A stretch of 40,520 bases of DNA from an uncultured cyanobacterium (GCA_963697335.1 CAVONQ010000017.1:1-40520), one strand, 5' to 3'; positions 30,001 to 40,520 are shown, counted from the stretch's first letter. Numbers: made by a program.

Positions 30001-33000
30001 GATGACGTAGGCCCATTCCGCCAGGAGAGTCTTGATCAGTCGTTCCGCCTTAGGCAAAGCCATGAATGGCAGGGTGCTGCTGGTGAGCGGATCCAAGCAG
30101 TGGGTGGTGTCGCCCGGCCCAGAGGCGAACACCCAGCTGCCGCGCTAACTGTGGTGGATGGAGCGCTGCCCCAGGGATGAGGCTTCGCGGCTGAGGCTCT
30201 GGCTCTCCCAGTGGACCCCGCGTGGGGAGATGGCGACGTCGTTGTATCGGGTGGAGGAGGACAGGTCACCCTGGGTGGCCCCCCAGGACCTGAGCGGCAT
30301 CCATGCCTTGTTGATGGCCGACACTCCACTGCCTTCAGGCGGGCCATCCTGAAGGCCACCCAGCCTGTTGATCCGGTGCTGCTTGCTGCTTCCCAGCCGA
30401 TCTGGTCTCTGCCGCTGGAGCAGGTGTATCCAGGTCTGCGCACCACCCCTGAGGGTCTCAGCCAGGCGGAAGCGGAGCAGCGGCTGGAGCGTTACGGCGC
30501 CAACCGGCTGCCGCCGCTGAAACGCCGCCCCCTGGTGCTGCGTTTCCTCGACCAGATGCTGCATTTCATGGCCCTGCTGCTGTGGATCGCAGGGGTGCTG
30601 GCCTTCGTGGCCGGCACCCCGCAGCTGGGCTCGGCGATCTGGGCGGTGGTGCTGATCAACGGCATCTTCTCGTTCTGGCAGGAGTTCCAAGCGGAGCGCA
30701 CCCTGGACGCTCTCACCCGCTCGCTGCCCCGCCAGGTCCAGGTGTGGCGCGATGGCCGGCTGGGCTTCCGCTCCGCTGAGCAGCTGGTGGCGGGTGACCG
30801 GCTGCTGCTGGAGGAGGGCGATCGGGTGCCGGCCGACTGCCGCATCAGCGTCAGCCATGAGCTGCGCGTCGATCTTTCGGTGCTGACCGGTGAATCGGTG
30901 CCGGTGGCTCGCCAGACCCTGGACCTGCCCGCCGCTCAGGCGGAGCTGCGTCTGCCCAGCGGTGAACGACCCAACCTGCTGCTGGCGGGAAGCACGATCG
31001 CCTCCGGCCGGGGCGAGGCGATCGTGTATGCCACCGGCTCCGAAACCGAATTCGGCCAGGTGGCCCGCCTCACGGCCGGCACCCACCGCAGCGCCAGCAC
31101 CCTGGAGCAGCAGGTGGCCCGCATCGTGCACACGATCAGCACGATCGCCATCACGATGGGCCTGCTCGCCTTCGCCCTGAGCCTGGTCTTCGTGGGCATG
31201 ACGCCCCTGGAGAGCCTGGTGTTCGCGATCGGGATCATCGTGGCCAACGTGCCCGAAGGCCTGCTGCCCACCGTCACCCTGGCGCTGGCCTTGAGCGTGC
31301 AGCGCATGGCCCGTCGCAAGGCGCTGGTGCGGCGTCTCTCGGCGGTGGAAACGCTCGGATCGGTGAGTGTGATCTGCAGCGACAAGACCGGCACCCTCAC
31401 CTGCAACCGCATGGCGGTGGAGGAAACCTGGCTGCCGGTGCCCGGCGAGGATCTGCAGCGGCTGCTGCTCGAGGGGGCCGCCCTCTGCAGCAACGCCCGC
31501 CTCGATGCCGGTGGTGCCGTGGGTGATCCCACCGAAACGGCGATGCTGCAGGCGGCCCAGGCCGCCGGCCTCGATCCGGCTGAGCTGCAGCGCCTCCACC
31601 CACGCCGCCGGGAGATCCCCTTCGATTCACACCGGCGGCGCATGACGGTGCTGGTGATGTGGAACGACCCGCCGTTGTCGATCGCCGACGGCGGCAGCCT
31701 GGTGATCACCAAGGGAGCGCCGCTGGAGGTGCTGGAGCGCTGCGAAGCCTGGCTCACGCCCAGCGGCAGCGAACCGCTCGATCAGAGCCGCCGCCGGCAG
31801 GTGGTGGCCGCCAACGACGACCTGGCCGCCAGGGGCTTCCGGGTGATTGCCGTCGCCCTGCGCGCCGGGCCGGAGGACATGCAGGCGGCGCCGGCAGACG
31901 TTCTGGAGTCGGGCCAGACGCTGCTCGGCCTGCTGGGCCTCTACGACCCGCCCCGACCGGAAGTGCCCGACGCCATCCGCCGCTGCCGCGATGCCGGCAT
32001 CAGGGTCACGATGGTGACCGGGGACTACGGCCTCACGGCCCAGGCGATCGCCCTGCAGATCGGCCTGCTGGAGCCGAGCTCCGCCCATGGCCAGGGAACG
32101 GAAGTCCATCACCGGAGTGGTCGGGCAGGTGCCGATCCCGTGCGGGTGATCGAGGGCTCCACCCTGGCCCAGATCAGCGACGTGCATCTGCGGCAGTTGC
32201 TGAAGTATCGCCACCGGCTGGTGTTCGCCCGCATGGCCCCGGAGCAGAAGCTGCGGCTGGTGCAGGCCTACCAGGCCCTCGGCGAGGTGGTGGCCGTCAC
32301 CGGCGATGGCGTCAACGACGCACCGGCCCTGCGTGCCGCCGATGTGGGCCTCGCCATGGGCATCAGCGGCACCGATGTGGCCCGCGAGGCCGCCGACATC
32401 GTGCTGCTCGACGACAACTTCGCCACGATCGTGGAGGCTGTGCGTTTCGGTCGCTCGGTGGTGGCGAACATCGGCAAGTTCATCACCTACATCCTGGCCT
32501 CGAACGTGCCGGAGATCCTGCCGTTCCTGGCGATGGTGGTGCTGCGGATCCCGGCGGCCCTCACGGTGCTGCAGATCCTGGCGGTGGATCTCGGCACCGA
32601 TCTGCTGCCGGCCCTGGGCCTGGGCTCGGAAGCCCCTGAAGCGGGGGTGATGCACCAGCCGCCACGCCGCCGTGACCTGCCCCTGCTCAACCGGCCCCTG
32701 ATGGTGCGGGCCTACCTGGTGCTGGGGCTGGTGGAGGGACTGATCTCGATGGCCGGCTACCTGCTGGTGTGGCACAACAACGGCGTCGACCTCTCCGCCC
32801 TGCAACAGCTGGCCCCCGATCTGCTCCACCACCGCGCCGCGCCTGCGGTGCAGGCGATCCAGCAACGGGCCTCCACGGTGGCCTTCTGCCTGATCGTGGC
32901 CGGCCAGATGGGGGCACTGCTGGCCTGCCGCAGCGACCGGCGCCCCTTCTGGGAACTGCTTCCCAATCCCAACCCGCTGCTGTGGCTGGGTTGGCTGAGT

Positions 33001-39000: not shown

Positions 39001-40520
39001 CATGCTTCTTTGGCGACCGGAGGACATACCCAGGCGCTATGGCTGGGGTGACCCGTTCATCCGTGAAGCCCTCGATCACGGTGTGGTGCTGCATGGCTGA
39101 GCGCAATCCTGTTGTTGACGAGTGGATCAGCAAGGGCGAGGGAGATTGGCGGGCCATGCAGTTGTTGCATCAGCAGCCAGGGCATGAGGATGCGGTGGTC
39201 TTTCACGCTCAGCAGTGTCTGGAGAAGTACTTCAAGGCAGCCCTGATTGCTCATGGGGAGACTGTGCAGAAGATCCATGATCTTCGGGAGCTCTCCAGGC
39301 AACTCGGGGCCCTGATGCCGGATTGGGAGGCTGATCCTTCCGATCTGACCCGGATCACCCAGGGAGGGGTGATGTTTCGCTACCCGGGGATGGAGGCCCA
39401 ACCAGAGGACGCCGCCAGGGCCGTTGCCATCACCCAAGGAGTGAGGCAGCGGCTTTCCGGGTGGCTGGGGACCCTTTCTGAAGCCGGTTGAACGGCATCC
39501 TCAAACCGCCAACCCCATCCCCTGCATCCACCCCGCCGGTATCGCACGCTCCAGCCGCCAGCGGATCGCCATCGGCCGCTCCCCCTCATGGCTCTCGTAG
39601 CGGGCAAACCCCAGACACCGAAACGGCTCGGTGACACCACCCTGCCTGCGGTGCTCCCGCACGTAGCCGAAGGCTTCTGCGAAGCAGTACAGCAGCACCC
39701 GCGAACCTCGCGCCTCATGGTGGATGGTGCGCTGACTGGTGGGGTCGGCGGCGGTGGTGCTGCTCTGGCTCCCCCAGTGGAACAGCGAGGGGCCGAGGGC
39801 CAGGTCGCGGGTGCGGGTGGAGGGGGAGAAGAGGGCTTCGCTCTTGTTGAGGGTCACGAACAGCAGGTCGGTGTGGCTGGCTTCGTGCCAGAGGACGCCT
39901 TCGCGGTGGATCCAGGGGGCGTCGTCTGTGAAGCTGACGAAACCGCCAGACTTCTGGGCAGAACTGGTCCAGTCTTCAACCCGCACCGAGGCTGGCGAGA
40001 ATCTTGCGGGCCAGAGGTTCTTTGATTTCGTTGTGTCTGGGGATGGCTTCCTTGACTCCAGTGGCTGGGTTGATCCAGATGGAGTGTGAAGCTCCTTCCC
40101 GTTTCAGGACACATCCAGCCATGCGAAGACGCCGTTCCAGATCGCGGCGTTTCATCCGATCTGCAGGGGCATGCGCACGGCATCAGGTGGCAGGCCACGG
40201 CTGATGTCAGCCGCACGATCCTCAAGGAGAAGCTCAATGGCGGCCTGCAGATCCTTTCTTGCTTCCTCCATGGTTTCTCCCTGACCGTTCGCGCCGGGAA
40301 GTTCCAGGCAGATCGCCCAGAAGCCACCCTCTGGAGCTGGCTCAATCACGGCAGTCAGTTCTCCCTTCATCAAACCCGCCTCGGTTACACATTCCAATCA
40401 GTTTAGGTACAACGAAGAGTGGCAGTAGCCATGGAGGTGACCAGGCGCCCTCTCCTGACGCGGAGCCCCCCTCAAACCGCCAACCCCATCCCATGCATCC
40501 ACGCCGCCGGTATCGCCCGC

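Follow-up and report, generated by a model that had tools for sequence, protein, structure and literature searches.

Behind cdiA, rhs and maf genes lie arrays of orphan toxin-immunity units, each with a piece of the main gene at one end, through which homologous recombination can swap the units. In tycheposons, the inserts are reportedly flanked by partial tRNA copies. The tycheposons of marine picocyanobacteria are treated in a preprint (10.1101/2020.12.28.424599). For integrons, In0 elements and CALINs, we followed the definitions in sections of PMC4889954. According to parts of a study from the Kobayashi group (PMC2853133), insertion with long target duplication involves two selfish, addictive genes that come without a mobility gene and lie between direct repeats, tens to hundreds of bp long, which often cover the 3′ end of a gene.

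We analyzed a window of 40,520 nt from an uncultured cyanobacterium (GCA_963697335.1 CAVONQ010000017.1:1-40520), in which 30.1–40.5 kb is an array of toxin-antitoxin (TA) modules and 3′ remnants of a gene, S, of the PLD-helicase-DUF3427 (SauUSI-like) kind. The array resembles sedentary chromosomal integrons and CALINs in its head-to-tail units of ~0.5–1.5 kb, each with the same recombination-site-like end, in the GTT triplets at the boundary, in the first bases past the boundary, which move with the downstream unit, in its TA cassettes, and in the IntI-family integrase that is present in most genomes and divergently beside the array in five relatives. Unlike integrons, the S array is without the attC imperfect palindrome, what recurs at its unit ends is 26–1700 nt from the tail of a gene that codes for a protein, insertion presumably takes place at the 3′ terminus of that 3.2-kb gene rather than at attI by intI, two of the six window modules are backwards, and intI usually lies elsewhere in the genome.

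The likeness to insertion with long target duplication, as the consulted parts of PMC2853133 describe it, consists of addictive pairs, the absence of a mobility gene and direct repeats that duplicate the target. By sequence, the S array would qualify as a mobility-gene-free addictive insert with direct repeats of >30 bp and with single-copy genomes as its empty sites. In those parts of the source, however, such insertions are single events with restriction-modification cargo and differing targets, whereas the S array has TA cargo, its target has been struck serially (up to at least seven times), one repeat end is constant to the single base and different genomes have units in common. Tandem accretion of islands at the 3′ ends of tRNA or other genes, as in tycheposons, also leaves inserts separated by incomplete copies of the target's 3′ part, which differ in how far they reach in the 5′ direction but agree in their 3′ end, and the hosts are related; those islands carry their own integrase and span kilobases to tens of kilobases, whereas S units measure 0.5–1.8 kb, have no integrase and lie at a protein-coding restriction gene. 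Like the arrays behind cdiA, rhs and maf, the S array is located downstream of a main gene and has a main-gene fragment in each unit. Their fragment is a 5′-truncated toxin tip that can recombine onto the main gene and alter its function, whereas the TA modules of the S array are independent genes and its fragments are non-functional tails.

Layout of the array in the window

Using repeat finding, self-blastn and tblastn with a relative's 1060-aa protein, we located six minus-strand 3′ remnants of S and one internal relic, with DUF3427 detected on the S fragments by Pfam. The six copies align at 33907–34296, 34871–35710 or 34871–35800, 36637–37156, 38167–38730, 39504–39995 and 40467–40520. The direct repeats are 150 to 930 nt long (self-blastn) and 70–94% identical in nucleotide sequence. 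The survey's finding had been that at least seven direct minus-strand copies all end alike; six do so, each terminating at the stop codon, with copy-to-copy homology breaking off at TGA plus G in all six, but the seventh, the relic, does not contain the gene end. Protein identity to a relative's S falls to 52–59% in the two copies most distant from the contig end, compared to 77–92% for the others, which bears out the claim that divergence is greatest there.

At the contig end, the array is cut within the last 54 nt of an S copy, either the intact gene or a remnant (40467–40520, minus strand; repeats and self-blastn), whose terminal site TTGGCGGTTTGA lies at 40472–40483. Cassette 1 contains a HicB-like antitoxin gene (40152–40397, minus; Pfam UPF0150-like at E 2.8e-4, below cut-off, and named by its pairing with HicA) and a HicA toxin gene (39976–40155, minus; HicA_toxin, 7.7e-10), the final codons of which overlap the start of the next S remnant, where S homology runs from 39995. 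This remnant (39501–39995, minus; Pfam, tblastn) covers ~aa 901–1060 and has the site at its end. Cassette 2 has the opposite orientation and encodes an MNT nucleotidyltransferase antitoxin (38777–39100, plus; NTP_transf_2, 1.4e-10) and a HEPN toxin (39093–39491, plus; HEPN, 3.3e-18), whose listed ORF runs from 38934 and whose likely start, according to the ORF translation, is ATG 39093. The following remnant (38164–38730, minus; tblastn) combines an MNT|S junction at ~aa 669, an internal deletion of ~aa 675–865 and a type-1 tail ending in the site. Cassette 3 consists of a putative Doc antitoxin gene (37918–38130, minus), assigned by position only and with no Pfam match, and a Doc/Fic toxin gene (37532–37921, minus; Fic, 4.4e-21). 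A decayed MNT gene (37150–37460, plus) is, from its ORF translation and a shared block (q3063–3370) in many relatives, the remnant of a second HEPN/MNT cassette, and no S end lies between this MNT and Doc.

The next S remnant (36634–37156, minus; Pfam, tblastn) covers ~aa 896–1060 with the site at its end. Cassette 4, again in opposite orientation, carries a toxin-like DUF5615 (PIN-like) gene (36098–36475, plus; 8.1e-25) and an antitoxin-like DUF433 gene (35739–36098, plus; 5.1e-23, the domain being ORF residues 50–105). It precedes the longest S remnant in the window (34868–35800, minus; Pfam, tblastn), ~aa 762–1060 with the site at its end. Cassette 5 pairs DUF433 (34621–34839, minus; 7.4e-26) with DUF5615 (34280–34624, minus; 6.6e-25), and the remnant after it (33904–34296, minus; tblastn) is of a diverged type (..AFVPEQAVAV, then stop) that ends GGTGGCGGTGTGA. 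Cassette 6 encodes a HicB-like antitoxin (33648–33866, minus; Pfam DUF7387/HicB_lk, weak) and a HicA toxin (33410–33655, minus; HicA_toxin, 6.7e-17). Inside the distal array lies a 3-kb P-type cation ATPase gene (30211–33216, plus; E1-E2_ATPase and related families), and the oldest S relic (30127–30276, minus; self-blastn, tblastn) corresponds to ~aa 952–1001.

The S remnants are thus separated by HicAB (twice), DUF433/DUF5615 (twice), Doc, HEPN/MNT and a decayed MNT. HicA, DUF5615, DUF433, Fic, NTP_transf_2 and HEPN exceed the Pfam cut-offs, while the HicB-like matches are weak; as adjacent small genes of toxin and antitoxin families, the modules would be classed as type II TA systems. In line with the statement that TA modules sit between successive copies, the intervening genes are overwhelmingly of TA families, but the ATPase gene occupies the interval between the last HicAB and the relic. 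Transposase and integrase genes are absent from 33.3–40.5 kb, and no recombinase gene was found in the window array, as the survey had claimed for the cassettes. Also as claimed, the 18-contig assembly has no full-length S by tblastn with five full-length relatives as queries, and the N-terminal 250 aa of S have no match in this genome (G000).

Gene S and its arrays in relatives

Elsewhere, intact S is a 1060-aa PLDc_2/ResIII/Helicase_C/DUF3427 gene at the head of a head-to-tail cassette array. One such gene (L004:7718-10900) has PLDc_2 at residues 192–276, ResIII at 320–479, Helicase_C at 561–658 and DUF3427 at 904–1050, and its predicted architecture (PLD nuclease, SF2 helicase, DUF3427, ~1000 aa) is that of a SauUSI-like type IV restriction enzyme. 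S-tail matches occur in 63 of 251 family genomes, in agreement with the view that the layout is widespread within the genus and the family, and every larger relative locus examined consists of S followed by repeats of a TA module plus an S remnant. Among 91 ORFs in the arrays of six relatives, matches include HigB, MNT/HepT, HicAB, DUF5615, PIN+MazE, Fic and HEPN. The array had been placed beside the intact gene, which is correct in relatives, but arrays also persist in genomes without intact S (G000, G005, G007, G008, G010 and G012, the last a complete genome). Three complete genomes (G101, G133 and G269) have a single-copy S and no array within 12 kb.

A mirror-image array of 5′ fragments on contig C6 had also been reported. 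The 5′ fragments are real, but they derive from gene X, which encodes a 338-aa HNH+HIT protein, and not from the helicase gene. The 5′ remnants of X sit across the core from the S arrays, and the defence cargo that separates X from S is variable and low in GC. Because no short motif comparable to the S-end site was found at the boundaries of the C6 X array, that array is better explained by a process based on homology or duplication.

The terminal site as a DNA element

The S remnants end alike in a site that is defined at the nucleotide level, GTTGGCGGTTTGA, and that in most cases has a G run behind it. Its consensus is (G/C)GTTGGCGGT(T/G)TGA, mostly with the G run after it, and it forms the last S codons or lies downstream of them. 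The 10-mer GGCGGTTTGA occurs six times in the 2.58-Mb genome; since five of these six copies sit at the window's copy ends, the layout is far from chance. Across 72 junctions, the last 12–16 nt are near-invariant, whereas the sequence varies from −17 to −45 and again from +1 onward; the sites were located via positions −12 to −1, and positions −16, −15 and −13 are independent of that selection. In ~185,000 species genomes, the 18-mer TTGGCGGTTTGAGGGGGG is found at 56 loci, 45 of them cyanobacterial, and the other 11 are roughly the chance expectation.

It had been suggested that the constant end could reflect coding constraint, which the data reject. The site is spelled with rare codons (among 791 long ORFs of the window's genome, TTG makes up 3.8% of the codons for Leu and GTT 3.2% of those for Val), it is retained behind at least four unrelated tail sequences, and in one tail type, that of G015, the ORF of intact S ends at 12283 (..PGCCLA, then stop) while the motif ends at 12303, 20 nt past the true stop. 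Based on the rare codons and on this displaced copy, we conclude that the site is a DNA element. Its conservation could instead serve a different role, for example in expressing the gene that follows. An inverted arm adjoining the site was not enriched (7 of 36 families, compared to 1–4 at control positions).

Integron integrase and the search for attC sites

Of 32 genus genomes, 23 have an integron integrase that exceeds the TIGR02249 cut-off. In the window's genome, intI (C16:4656-5735, 466 bits) is on a separate contig beside a hisC-like gene, with no array there. The survey had put the integrase far from the array, which is usually so, and in 28 of 30 sampled S starts no intI lies within 1.5 kb; in the other two it does. 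In five relatives, however, intI or its remnant abuts the 5′ end of S in integron-platform orientation, head to head and 45–120 bp apart (remnants in G013, L003 and G030; full length, at 456–464 bits, in G187 and the complete genome G146), and the gap between the two start codons holds no cassette. By hand tallies and Fisher tests, which relatedness confounds, intI is present in 53 of the 63 genomes of the family that have S tails versus 23 of the 188 that lack them. Two 99%-complete genomes (G167 and G168) have arrays of at least three matches and no intI match, and G269 has intI and no array.

We found no attC-type fold in the last 125 nt plus 15 nt of four copies on both strands (z between −1.8 and +1.3). 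A scan for RYYYAAC...GTTRRRY returned 12 scattered pairs genome-wide and none at unit ends; the sole box pair in the array is weak and falls inside a cassette (39396–39493). An Rfam search for attC-like elements gave no match, although Rfam may hold no attC model. These searches agree with the earlier failure to see an attC-like hairpin. The description as an integron-like cassette array, appropriate to the head-to-tail layout next to S, therefore refers to layout only, as the predicted folds do not include the 57–141-nt imperfect palindromes by which attC sites of an integron are recognized.

Junctions and exchange between genomes

About 28 of 36 downstream sequence families with S-type sequence upstream begin immediately past the stop codon. 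Where junction pairs have at least 130 nt in common upstream and unrelated sequence downstream, similarity stops at the stop codon in 730 of 912. Conversely, 24 junction pairs have the downstream cassette in common (81–97% identity) and a different tail, and in 20 of these the common upstream stretch is merely 21–24 nt. Which of the two stop variants is present, TGA|G or TAG|C, goes along with the downstream cassette. The 3′ part of a remnant is weakly linked to the cassette that follows it (median ungapped identity of 0.65 versus 0.51), and at finer resolution a tail type is inherited jointly with a variant of the downstream cassette. In contigs from other samples, a weak source consisting of contigs only, near-identical S ends are joined to different cassettes, the break falling 0–6 nt from the stop.

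Comparison of the genomes suggests that the unit is a TA module plus its downstream remnant. HicBA and its remnant are common to the window's genome, G003 and G009 at 88–91%, and different cassettes follow. The remnants that bound cassettes range from 26 nt to 1.7 kb, the shortest being 26 nt (L076) and ~55 nt (L058). The variable 5′ ends that had been noted are real, but in part they are later internal deletions of longer remnants: the MNT|S junction at ~aa 669 is common to four genomes (G000, G005, G013 and G015), and the internal deletions of the MNT|S remnants differ among them. Hybrid remnants are present in G009 (14402–15336) and in the window (38164–38730, junction relic plus type-1 tail), so that homology-driven exchange is active.

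Proposed mechanism of array growth

The explanation that we prefer, and to which we assign an even chance, is a hotspot where cassettes accrete at a short site, remnants are shuffled by homology, units decay and addiction retains the TA modules. The anatomy, the coding-independent conservation of the site, the units common to several genomes, the hybrid and decayed remnants and the arrays without S are observed; the site-directed recombination, its enzyme and the addiction ratchet are what we infer. Units of 0.5–1.8 kb follow S head to tail, each with one TA module in either orientation and then a 5′-truncated S remnant. Recombination at the short site would insert or exchange units, with an exchange point between −22 and the second stop-codon base, and the recombinase would be encoded elsewhere in the genome, the integron-type integrase being the best candidate. 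Ordinary homologous recombination among S remnants would create the hybrids, internal deletion would erode old units, and the TA modules would be the survivors, because, as proposed, their loss is lethal. On this account, at the same even odds, the array makes up the downstream half of a hotspot for gene accretion that is specific to the lineage and lies in a defence island of non-marine picocyanobacteria. In freshwater picocyanobacteria, the short sequence that ends each leftover S tail looks like one for capturing genes with no need of hairpins as in classical integrons. Long S remnants are superfluous to a purely site-specific system, an observation that counts against the preferred explanation, as do the hybrids, the joint inheritance of tail type and cassette variant, the C6 array with no comparable motif, the lack of attC-type structure and the genomes in which intI and arrays occur apart.

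A serious rival, possible though we would not expect it to be correct, relies on homology only: the S remnants would be portable homology, units, made up of a remnant and a TA module in either order, would loop out by RecA recombination between two S copies, and they would re-enter by a single Campbell-type or double crossover between flanking S copies, in the same cell or after DNA uptake. The first junctions would come from rare illegitimate events or tandem duplications, as in insertion with long target duplication, and the motif would be kept for an unrelated reason. Remnants of 150–1700 nt at 70–94% identity are ample substrate, the array has no recombinase, hybrids exist, and the X array on C6 has the same layout with no short common motif. 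The intact S 3′ end plus Phd/Doc of G019 is 91% identical over 1.18 kb to a remnant plus Phd/Doc of the window's genome, so that a remnant and its downstream module also move jointly. Selfish pairs with 46–423-bp target duplications and no mobility gene are documented for restriction-modification in parts of PMC2853133. Homology leaves unaccounted for, however, the same starting base of ~28 unrelated cassette families, one cassette at 92–97% identity behind tails with 21–24 nt in common, cassette boundaries at 26–55-nt remnants, and a rare-codon motif retained even outside the ORF. RecA crossover within 14–22 nt of homology is unlikely, which also counts against this rival. Single-base precision in ~28 families and conservation of a non-coding motif weigh equally on a decidedly improbable account in which S plus TA, or X through S plus TA, arrives time and again by gene transfer as tandem additions with no dedicated insertion mechanism. 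Redundant older S copies would then erode from the 5′ side, TA addiction would bar clean replacement, and the oldest would lie farthest away. The distal copies are indeed the most diverged, long remnants in relatives begin at aa 458–676 and resemble half-eroded genes, a 543-aa remnant of a different S type lies 6 nt behind the intact gene in L004 with no TA between, internal deletions are progressive and lineage-specific, X remnants lie across the core, and the variable low-GC cargo implies rapid core turnover. The units common to genomes with different upstream neighbours are nevertheless TA plus downstream remnant, the opposite of the expected linkage of S with the following TA.

Silent-cassette stores have analogues in pilS and the orphan toxin tips. 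Here, 3′ remnants would donate sequence by gene conversion and diversify a modification-sensing DUF3427 domain, while TA modules stabilize the store. DUF3427 is the target-recognition domain of SauUSI-type enzymes according to parts of PMC3141236 and PMC6765204, two or three divergent remnant types occur together in single arrays, and hybrids prove copy-to-copy exchange. We regard this as very improbable: many remnants are frameshifted, internally deleted or only 26–150 nt long, arrays occur without any expressed S, neither the window's genome nor the complete G012 has an acceptor gene, and conservation peaks in the last 14 nt rather than in the recognition domain. Predicted from sequence, intact in-frame donors with an expressed acceptor do not describe this array. 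Least probable of all is that the array belongs to a normal chromosomal integron or CALIN and its attC sites were overlooked; intI is present and sometimes beside S in the canonical divergent orientation, and cassette size and TA content are typical, but unit ends have no R″/R′ box pairs, hairpins or Rfam match (with the stated reservation on Rfam's models) and are protein-coding remnants of variable length. An attC-less integron, in which a cyanobacterial IntI-family integrase, widespread in these genomes but without a canonical cassette array, uses a ~20-nt site in the last codons of the restriction gene, is unlikely, though less so than the tandem-addition account. Its cassettes would arise when any DNA, here TA modules, fuses upstream of an S-tail piece. 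Cassette genesis has, to our knowledge, never been observed for integrons, and if this account were true, the variable S remnants would be its fossils.

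An array of restriction gene remnants and toxin–antitoxin modules

The window is the full length of contig C17. Between 33.9 kb and its end, the 3′ end of S, a SauUSI-like type IV restriction gene, occurs six times on the minus strand, at 33904-34296, 34868-35800, 36634-37156, 38164-38730, 39501-39995 and 40467-40520; the contig end truncates the last copy. A further, internal relic of S lies at 30127-30276, and a P-type ATPase gene sits between it and the last HicAB module. The modules separating the copies are HicB/HicA (twice), DUF433/DUF5615 (twice, in opposite orientations), a Doc toxin with an unassigned partner, and MNT/HEPN in backward orientation; a decayed second MNT is found at 37150-37460. 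In relatives, the intact S protein has 1056-1095 aa and carries PLDc_2, ResIII, Helicase_C and DUF3427, which is the SauUSI architecture, while full-length S is absent from the genome under study (G000; 18 contigs, 2.58 Mb, 66-70% GC). The copy coordinates and Pfam content therefore confirm the survey's finding of an array in which S 3′ copies alternate with toxin–antitoxin (TA) modules.

Three P-type cation ATPase genes flank or occupy the distal ends of this array and of a second one on contig C6 (25910-28294, minus strand, and 30211-33216, plus strand, in the window; C6:8482-10671), and may mark the island's original chromosomal flanks. The window also holds a tRNA gene at 5589-5662 (minus strand; Rfam tRNA, 59.7 bits).

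The constant end of the remnants

Homology between the copies ends 1 base past the stop codon in all six. The last 12-14 nt, TTGGCGGT(T/G)TGA or a form ending in TTTAG, are identical behind at least four unrelated preceding sequences (84 motif matches in about 20 relatives). Across 72 junctions in S context, the information content lies between 1.2 and 1.9 bits at positions −16 to −1, against mostly less than 0.9 bits on both flanks, where −12 to −1 served as the search key of the set and only −16, −15, −13 and the two flanks are unbiased. The final codons, TTG-GCG-GTT, make up 3.8%, 21% and 3.2% of their codon families in 791 long ORFs of G000. In the intact S of the relative G015, the stop lies at 12283 (..PGCCLA*) and is followed by GCGTTGGCGGTGTGA and GGGGG, ending at 12303. 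G133 and G269, complete genomes from another genus with S but no array, spell the S end differently, as GTGGCGATTTGA. Judged from these sequences, the constant end is a DNA site; the survey's suggestion that coding constraint produced it is countered by the unrelated tails, the rare codons and, most clearly, the site beyond the stop in G015.

In 'type 3' tails, such as that of the intact S of G015, an insertion of roughly 22 nt closes the S ORF early. More broadly, 'type 3/4' tails (e.g. loci L012:7190-7233, L104 and L072) carry a 20-45-nt insert (..CCAGGCTGTTGCTTGGCATAGCGGCG..) right before the site, which is accompanied by a partial tandem copy in some tails, can fold into a short hairpin, TGCCAGGC/GCTTGGCA, closes the S ORF early and may be the scar of earlier events there.

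The sequences downstream of the site form 36 families, of which about 28 have a genuine S-type upstream; all of these start right after the stop, and many open with a run of 3-13 G. An 18-mer that includes the G run occurs at 56 loci in about 185,000 species genomes (45 of them cyanobacterial, the other 11 being about what chance would give by our estimate) and is absent from viral contigs. A plasmid or phage source was rejected, with one 267-nt, 66% match in 72,556 plasmids and none in 50,697 phages. Within the array, no sigma-70 promoter-like sites were found, and terminator-like sites number 5 against 3.7 expected; these counts speak neither for nor against retention of the S tail as a promoter.

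Exchange at or close to the site

Comparisons between junctions locate the point of exchange. Among 142 distinct junctions, we found 912 pairs that share at least 130 nt upstream and differ downstream; in 730 of these pairs the similarity stops at the stop codon. Conversely, 24 pairs have a common downstream cassette (81-97% identity) behind unrelated tails, and 20 of them have no more than 21-24 nt of upstream sequence in common. The choice between TGA followed by G and TAG followed by C tracks the downstream cassette, regardless of tail type. Together, the junction pairs and this linkage place the exchange between −22 and the second base of the stop codon. Remnants as short as 26 nt (L076) and about 55 nt (L058) still bound a cassette. 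Contigs from other samples join near-identical S ends to other cassettes, with breaks at 36630, 39503 and 40466, although this is weak evidence because the junctions come from assembled contigs rather than reads. Joints inside remnants (e.g. 35209 to 38627 in X1, side 21) are probably assembly repeat artefacts.

Inheritance, decay and shuffling of units

Each unit consists of a TA module and its downstream S remnant. HicBA and its remnant are common to G000, G003 (91%, q84-1021) and G009 (88%), while the next cassette differs in each genome; likewise, the DUF5615/DUF433 module and the start of its remnant are common to G000 and G027 (92%). In G000, G005, G013 and G015, the HEPN/MNT module has a common junction with S (..ACCTTCGGCCAGGC.., about aa 669), and different internal stretches of S have since been lost in G000 and G005. 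The 5′ ends of the remnants do vary, as the survey had found, and the shared join with its lineage-specific losses indicates that part of this variation is secondary decay.

At 38164-38730, the junction relic of one S type is joined to the tail of another, which makes this remnant a hybrid; its tail and Phd/Doc share 91% identity over 1.18 kb with the intact S end and Phd/Doc in G019. Remnants thus also recombine with one another by homology. Of 251 family genomes, 34 gave S 5′ sequence. None was found in six genomes that carry arrays, namely G000, G005, G007, G008, G010 and G012 (complete); arrays thus outlive the S gene.

A second restriction-type gene and its array

In relatives, the locus begins with repeats of a 5′ piece of gene X plus a TA module, followed by X itself, 3-5 kb of cargo, S, and repeats of a TA module plus an S 3′ piece. 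X encodes a 338-aa HNH+HIT protein. The X–S interval has 42-55% GC, compared to roughly 68% in the genome, and its gene content differs from genome to genome (L031 of G013, 4058-9190; L004, 3315-7718; L044 of G015, 5732-9113; L037 of G009, 5452-8449). PtuA/PtuB-like genes and a dGTPase (dGTP triphosphohydrolase) occupy it in G013. The interval looks like a hotspot for foreign, low-GC defence cargo between two restriction-type genes.

In G000, the X-side array is at the start of contig C6 (C6:1-8000, locus L018), and the core between C6 and the window's contig, C17, is missing from the assembly. Minus-strand 5′ pieces of X (C6:2032-2405, 3652-3791, 4576-4801 and 5928-6783) separate VapB/PIN (VapBC; 2429-3177), an HTH_3 gene (3155-3646), MNT/HepT (3919-4583), MazE/PemK (MazEF; 4623-5488), PIN_2 (5674-5925) and RHH/PIN (6797-7491). 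The survey had described this as a mirror-image array of 5′ fragments. The array is real, yet it is built of X: five full-length S proteins gave no match on C6 at E ≤ 10, and no 5′ S fragments were found there. The X copies stop some 15 nt ahead of the X start codon, and a short shared motif comparable to the S site was not seen at their ends.

The search for integron components

The survey reported no attC-like hairpin at the copy ends, and this is borne out. An Rfam gathering scan (the window and four loci) and a scan at E ≤ 10 (29.5-40.5 kb) returned only the tRNA and one chance miRNA match, single-stranded DNA folding of unit ends gave no significant structure, and R″/R′ boxes formed no clusters anywhere in G000, with no box pair marking unit ends. 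Canonical attC sites at unit ends were therefore rejected. An inverted arm (CCGCCAA) near the site, as in a tyrosine-recombinase core, was not enriched (7 of 36 families, 1-4 in control windows), and no copy of the site lies within 330 nt upstream of seven integron integrase genes (intI). An ordinary integron is disfavoured by these three absences.

The sole RYYYAAC...GTTRRRY pair in the array, at 39396-39493 (98 nt, −19 to −20 kcal/mol, 4/7 terminal bases paired), overlaps the 3′ end of the backward HEPN gene, its own end lying 7 nt from the S site. Its GTTCAAC is kept in homologous cassettes of G005, G013 and G015, and the pair could be chance.

An integrase is nevertheless associated with these loci. 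The PtuAB/dGTPase core of G013 ends in a broken intI that diverges from S, with 45 bp between it and the S start. The same head-to-head arrangement of intI or its remnant with the S start occurs in L003, G030, G187 (full length, 457 bits) and G146 (complete genome; full length, 464 bits), where the order is X, IS, intI, S remnant, cassettes. S thus lies on the side, and in the orientation, where an integron keeps its cassettes. However, intI adjoins S in only 2 of 30 S starts sampled. The integrase profile TIGR02249 scored above cut-off in 23 of 32 genus genomes. By a hand tally, intI is present in 53 of 63 genomes with S tails and 23 of 188 without; at least two S-tail matches occur in 41 of the 53 tail-bearing genomes with intI and 4 of the 10 without (up to three candidates scored per genome). 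Fisher P-values for this association overstate the case, because the relatives do not count as independent samples and both features are limited to the larger non-marine genomes. Two genomes, G167 and G168 (both 99% complete), have arrays and no intI match.

G000 itself has a full-length intI (359 aa, 466 bits; C16:4656-5735, minus strand) and a frameshifted remnant (about aa 37-335) at the very start of contig C15 (C15:5-710, L052). The remnant may belong to the unassembled C6–C17 core; no S sequence follows it on C15. No cassette arrays lie beside the full-length intI in G000, G015, G012 or G002.

On C16 (2301-5735, L051), intI neighbours tyrosine-recombinase and IS91-like zinc-binding transposase genes (2301-4264, minus strand), a trio 81% identical in G002 (L055) and with no repeats or cassettes beside it in G000. 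Targeted insertion of the IS200/IS605 or IS91 type was a further mechanism considered, and this IS91-like pair is the one observation that relates to it. In G015, G012 and G002, by contrast, intI comes after a conserved gene that ends ..RRSSLDC*. At G165:C49:5474-5758, a remnant of the intI C-terminus sits within the array region, downstream of S and on its strand. Aligned sequences of G002, G009, G015 and G019 have a perfect palindrome, TTTATGCGGA(C/T)CCGCATAAA, about 100 nt before the S start and a second element, CCTAACTTGTTATTGGGCGGATCCGCCTAAA, some 300 nt ahead of that start. Read on its bottom strand, this second element contains GTTAGGC, the textbook core of integrons.

Candidate mechanisms and their significance

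We favour, at even odds, a cassette-accretion hotspot in which recombination directed at the short terminal site would add cassettes. An integron-type integrase acting in trans is the leading but unproven candidate for the enzyme; that the whole system is an integron without attC is distinctly doubtful. Homology alone, which we regard as rather doubtful, accounts for the long remnants, the hybrid remnants and the X-side array, but leaves unexplained the single-base precision of about 28 independent junctions and why the site is conserved where it is non-coding. The same weakness affects a second rival, in which serially replaced alleles simply pile up as a passive graveyard; the linkage between TA modules and their downstream remnants speaks against it too, and it appears improbable. 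The remnants might instead store silent cassettes of the DUF3427 domain, but they are broken and arrays exist without any S, which makes this unlikely. Under every reading, we infer that differential survival best accounts for the near-exclusive TA content: the array could lose length by deletion until an addictive module is reached, and TA modules would survive.

Full-text searches on cyanobacterial integrons, Cyanobium islands, SauUSI/DUF3427, and TA cassettes with gene fragments or direct repeats gave no description of such an arrangement. For In0, CALIN and integrons in Cyanobacteria we drew on parts of PMC4889954, for insertion with long target duplication on parts of PMC2853133, and parts of PMC2426708 served as a further source.

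The arrangement bears on two questions: where the recombination sites of integron-type arrays come from, and how genes accumulate at fixed positions in defence islands that lack a resident recombinase. If the integrase link is true, it would widen the integron concept and supply a substrate for 'orphan' In0 integrases; if homology alone is true, it would be a clear RecA-driven analogue of the integron that selects addictive genes. Either way, it accounts for where much of the TA load in freshwater picocyanobacteria is located, and why. The locus also draws attention to a two-gene restriction core, X and S, whose interior is a likely hotspot for low-GC defence cargo. Dozens of species form a natural series, with arrays of 1 to at least 7 units and units traceable across genomes. 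Because each site-bearing unit end can be recognised as part of a known gene, one can follow directly how units arise, spread, hybridise and decay.
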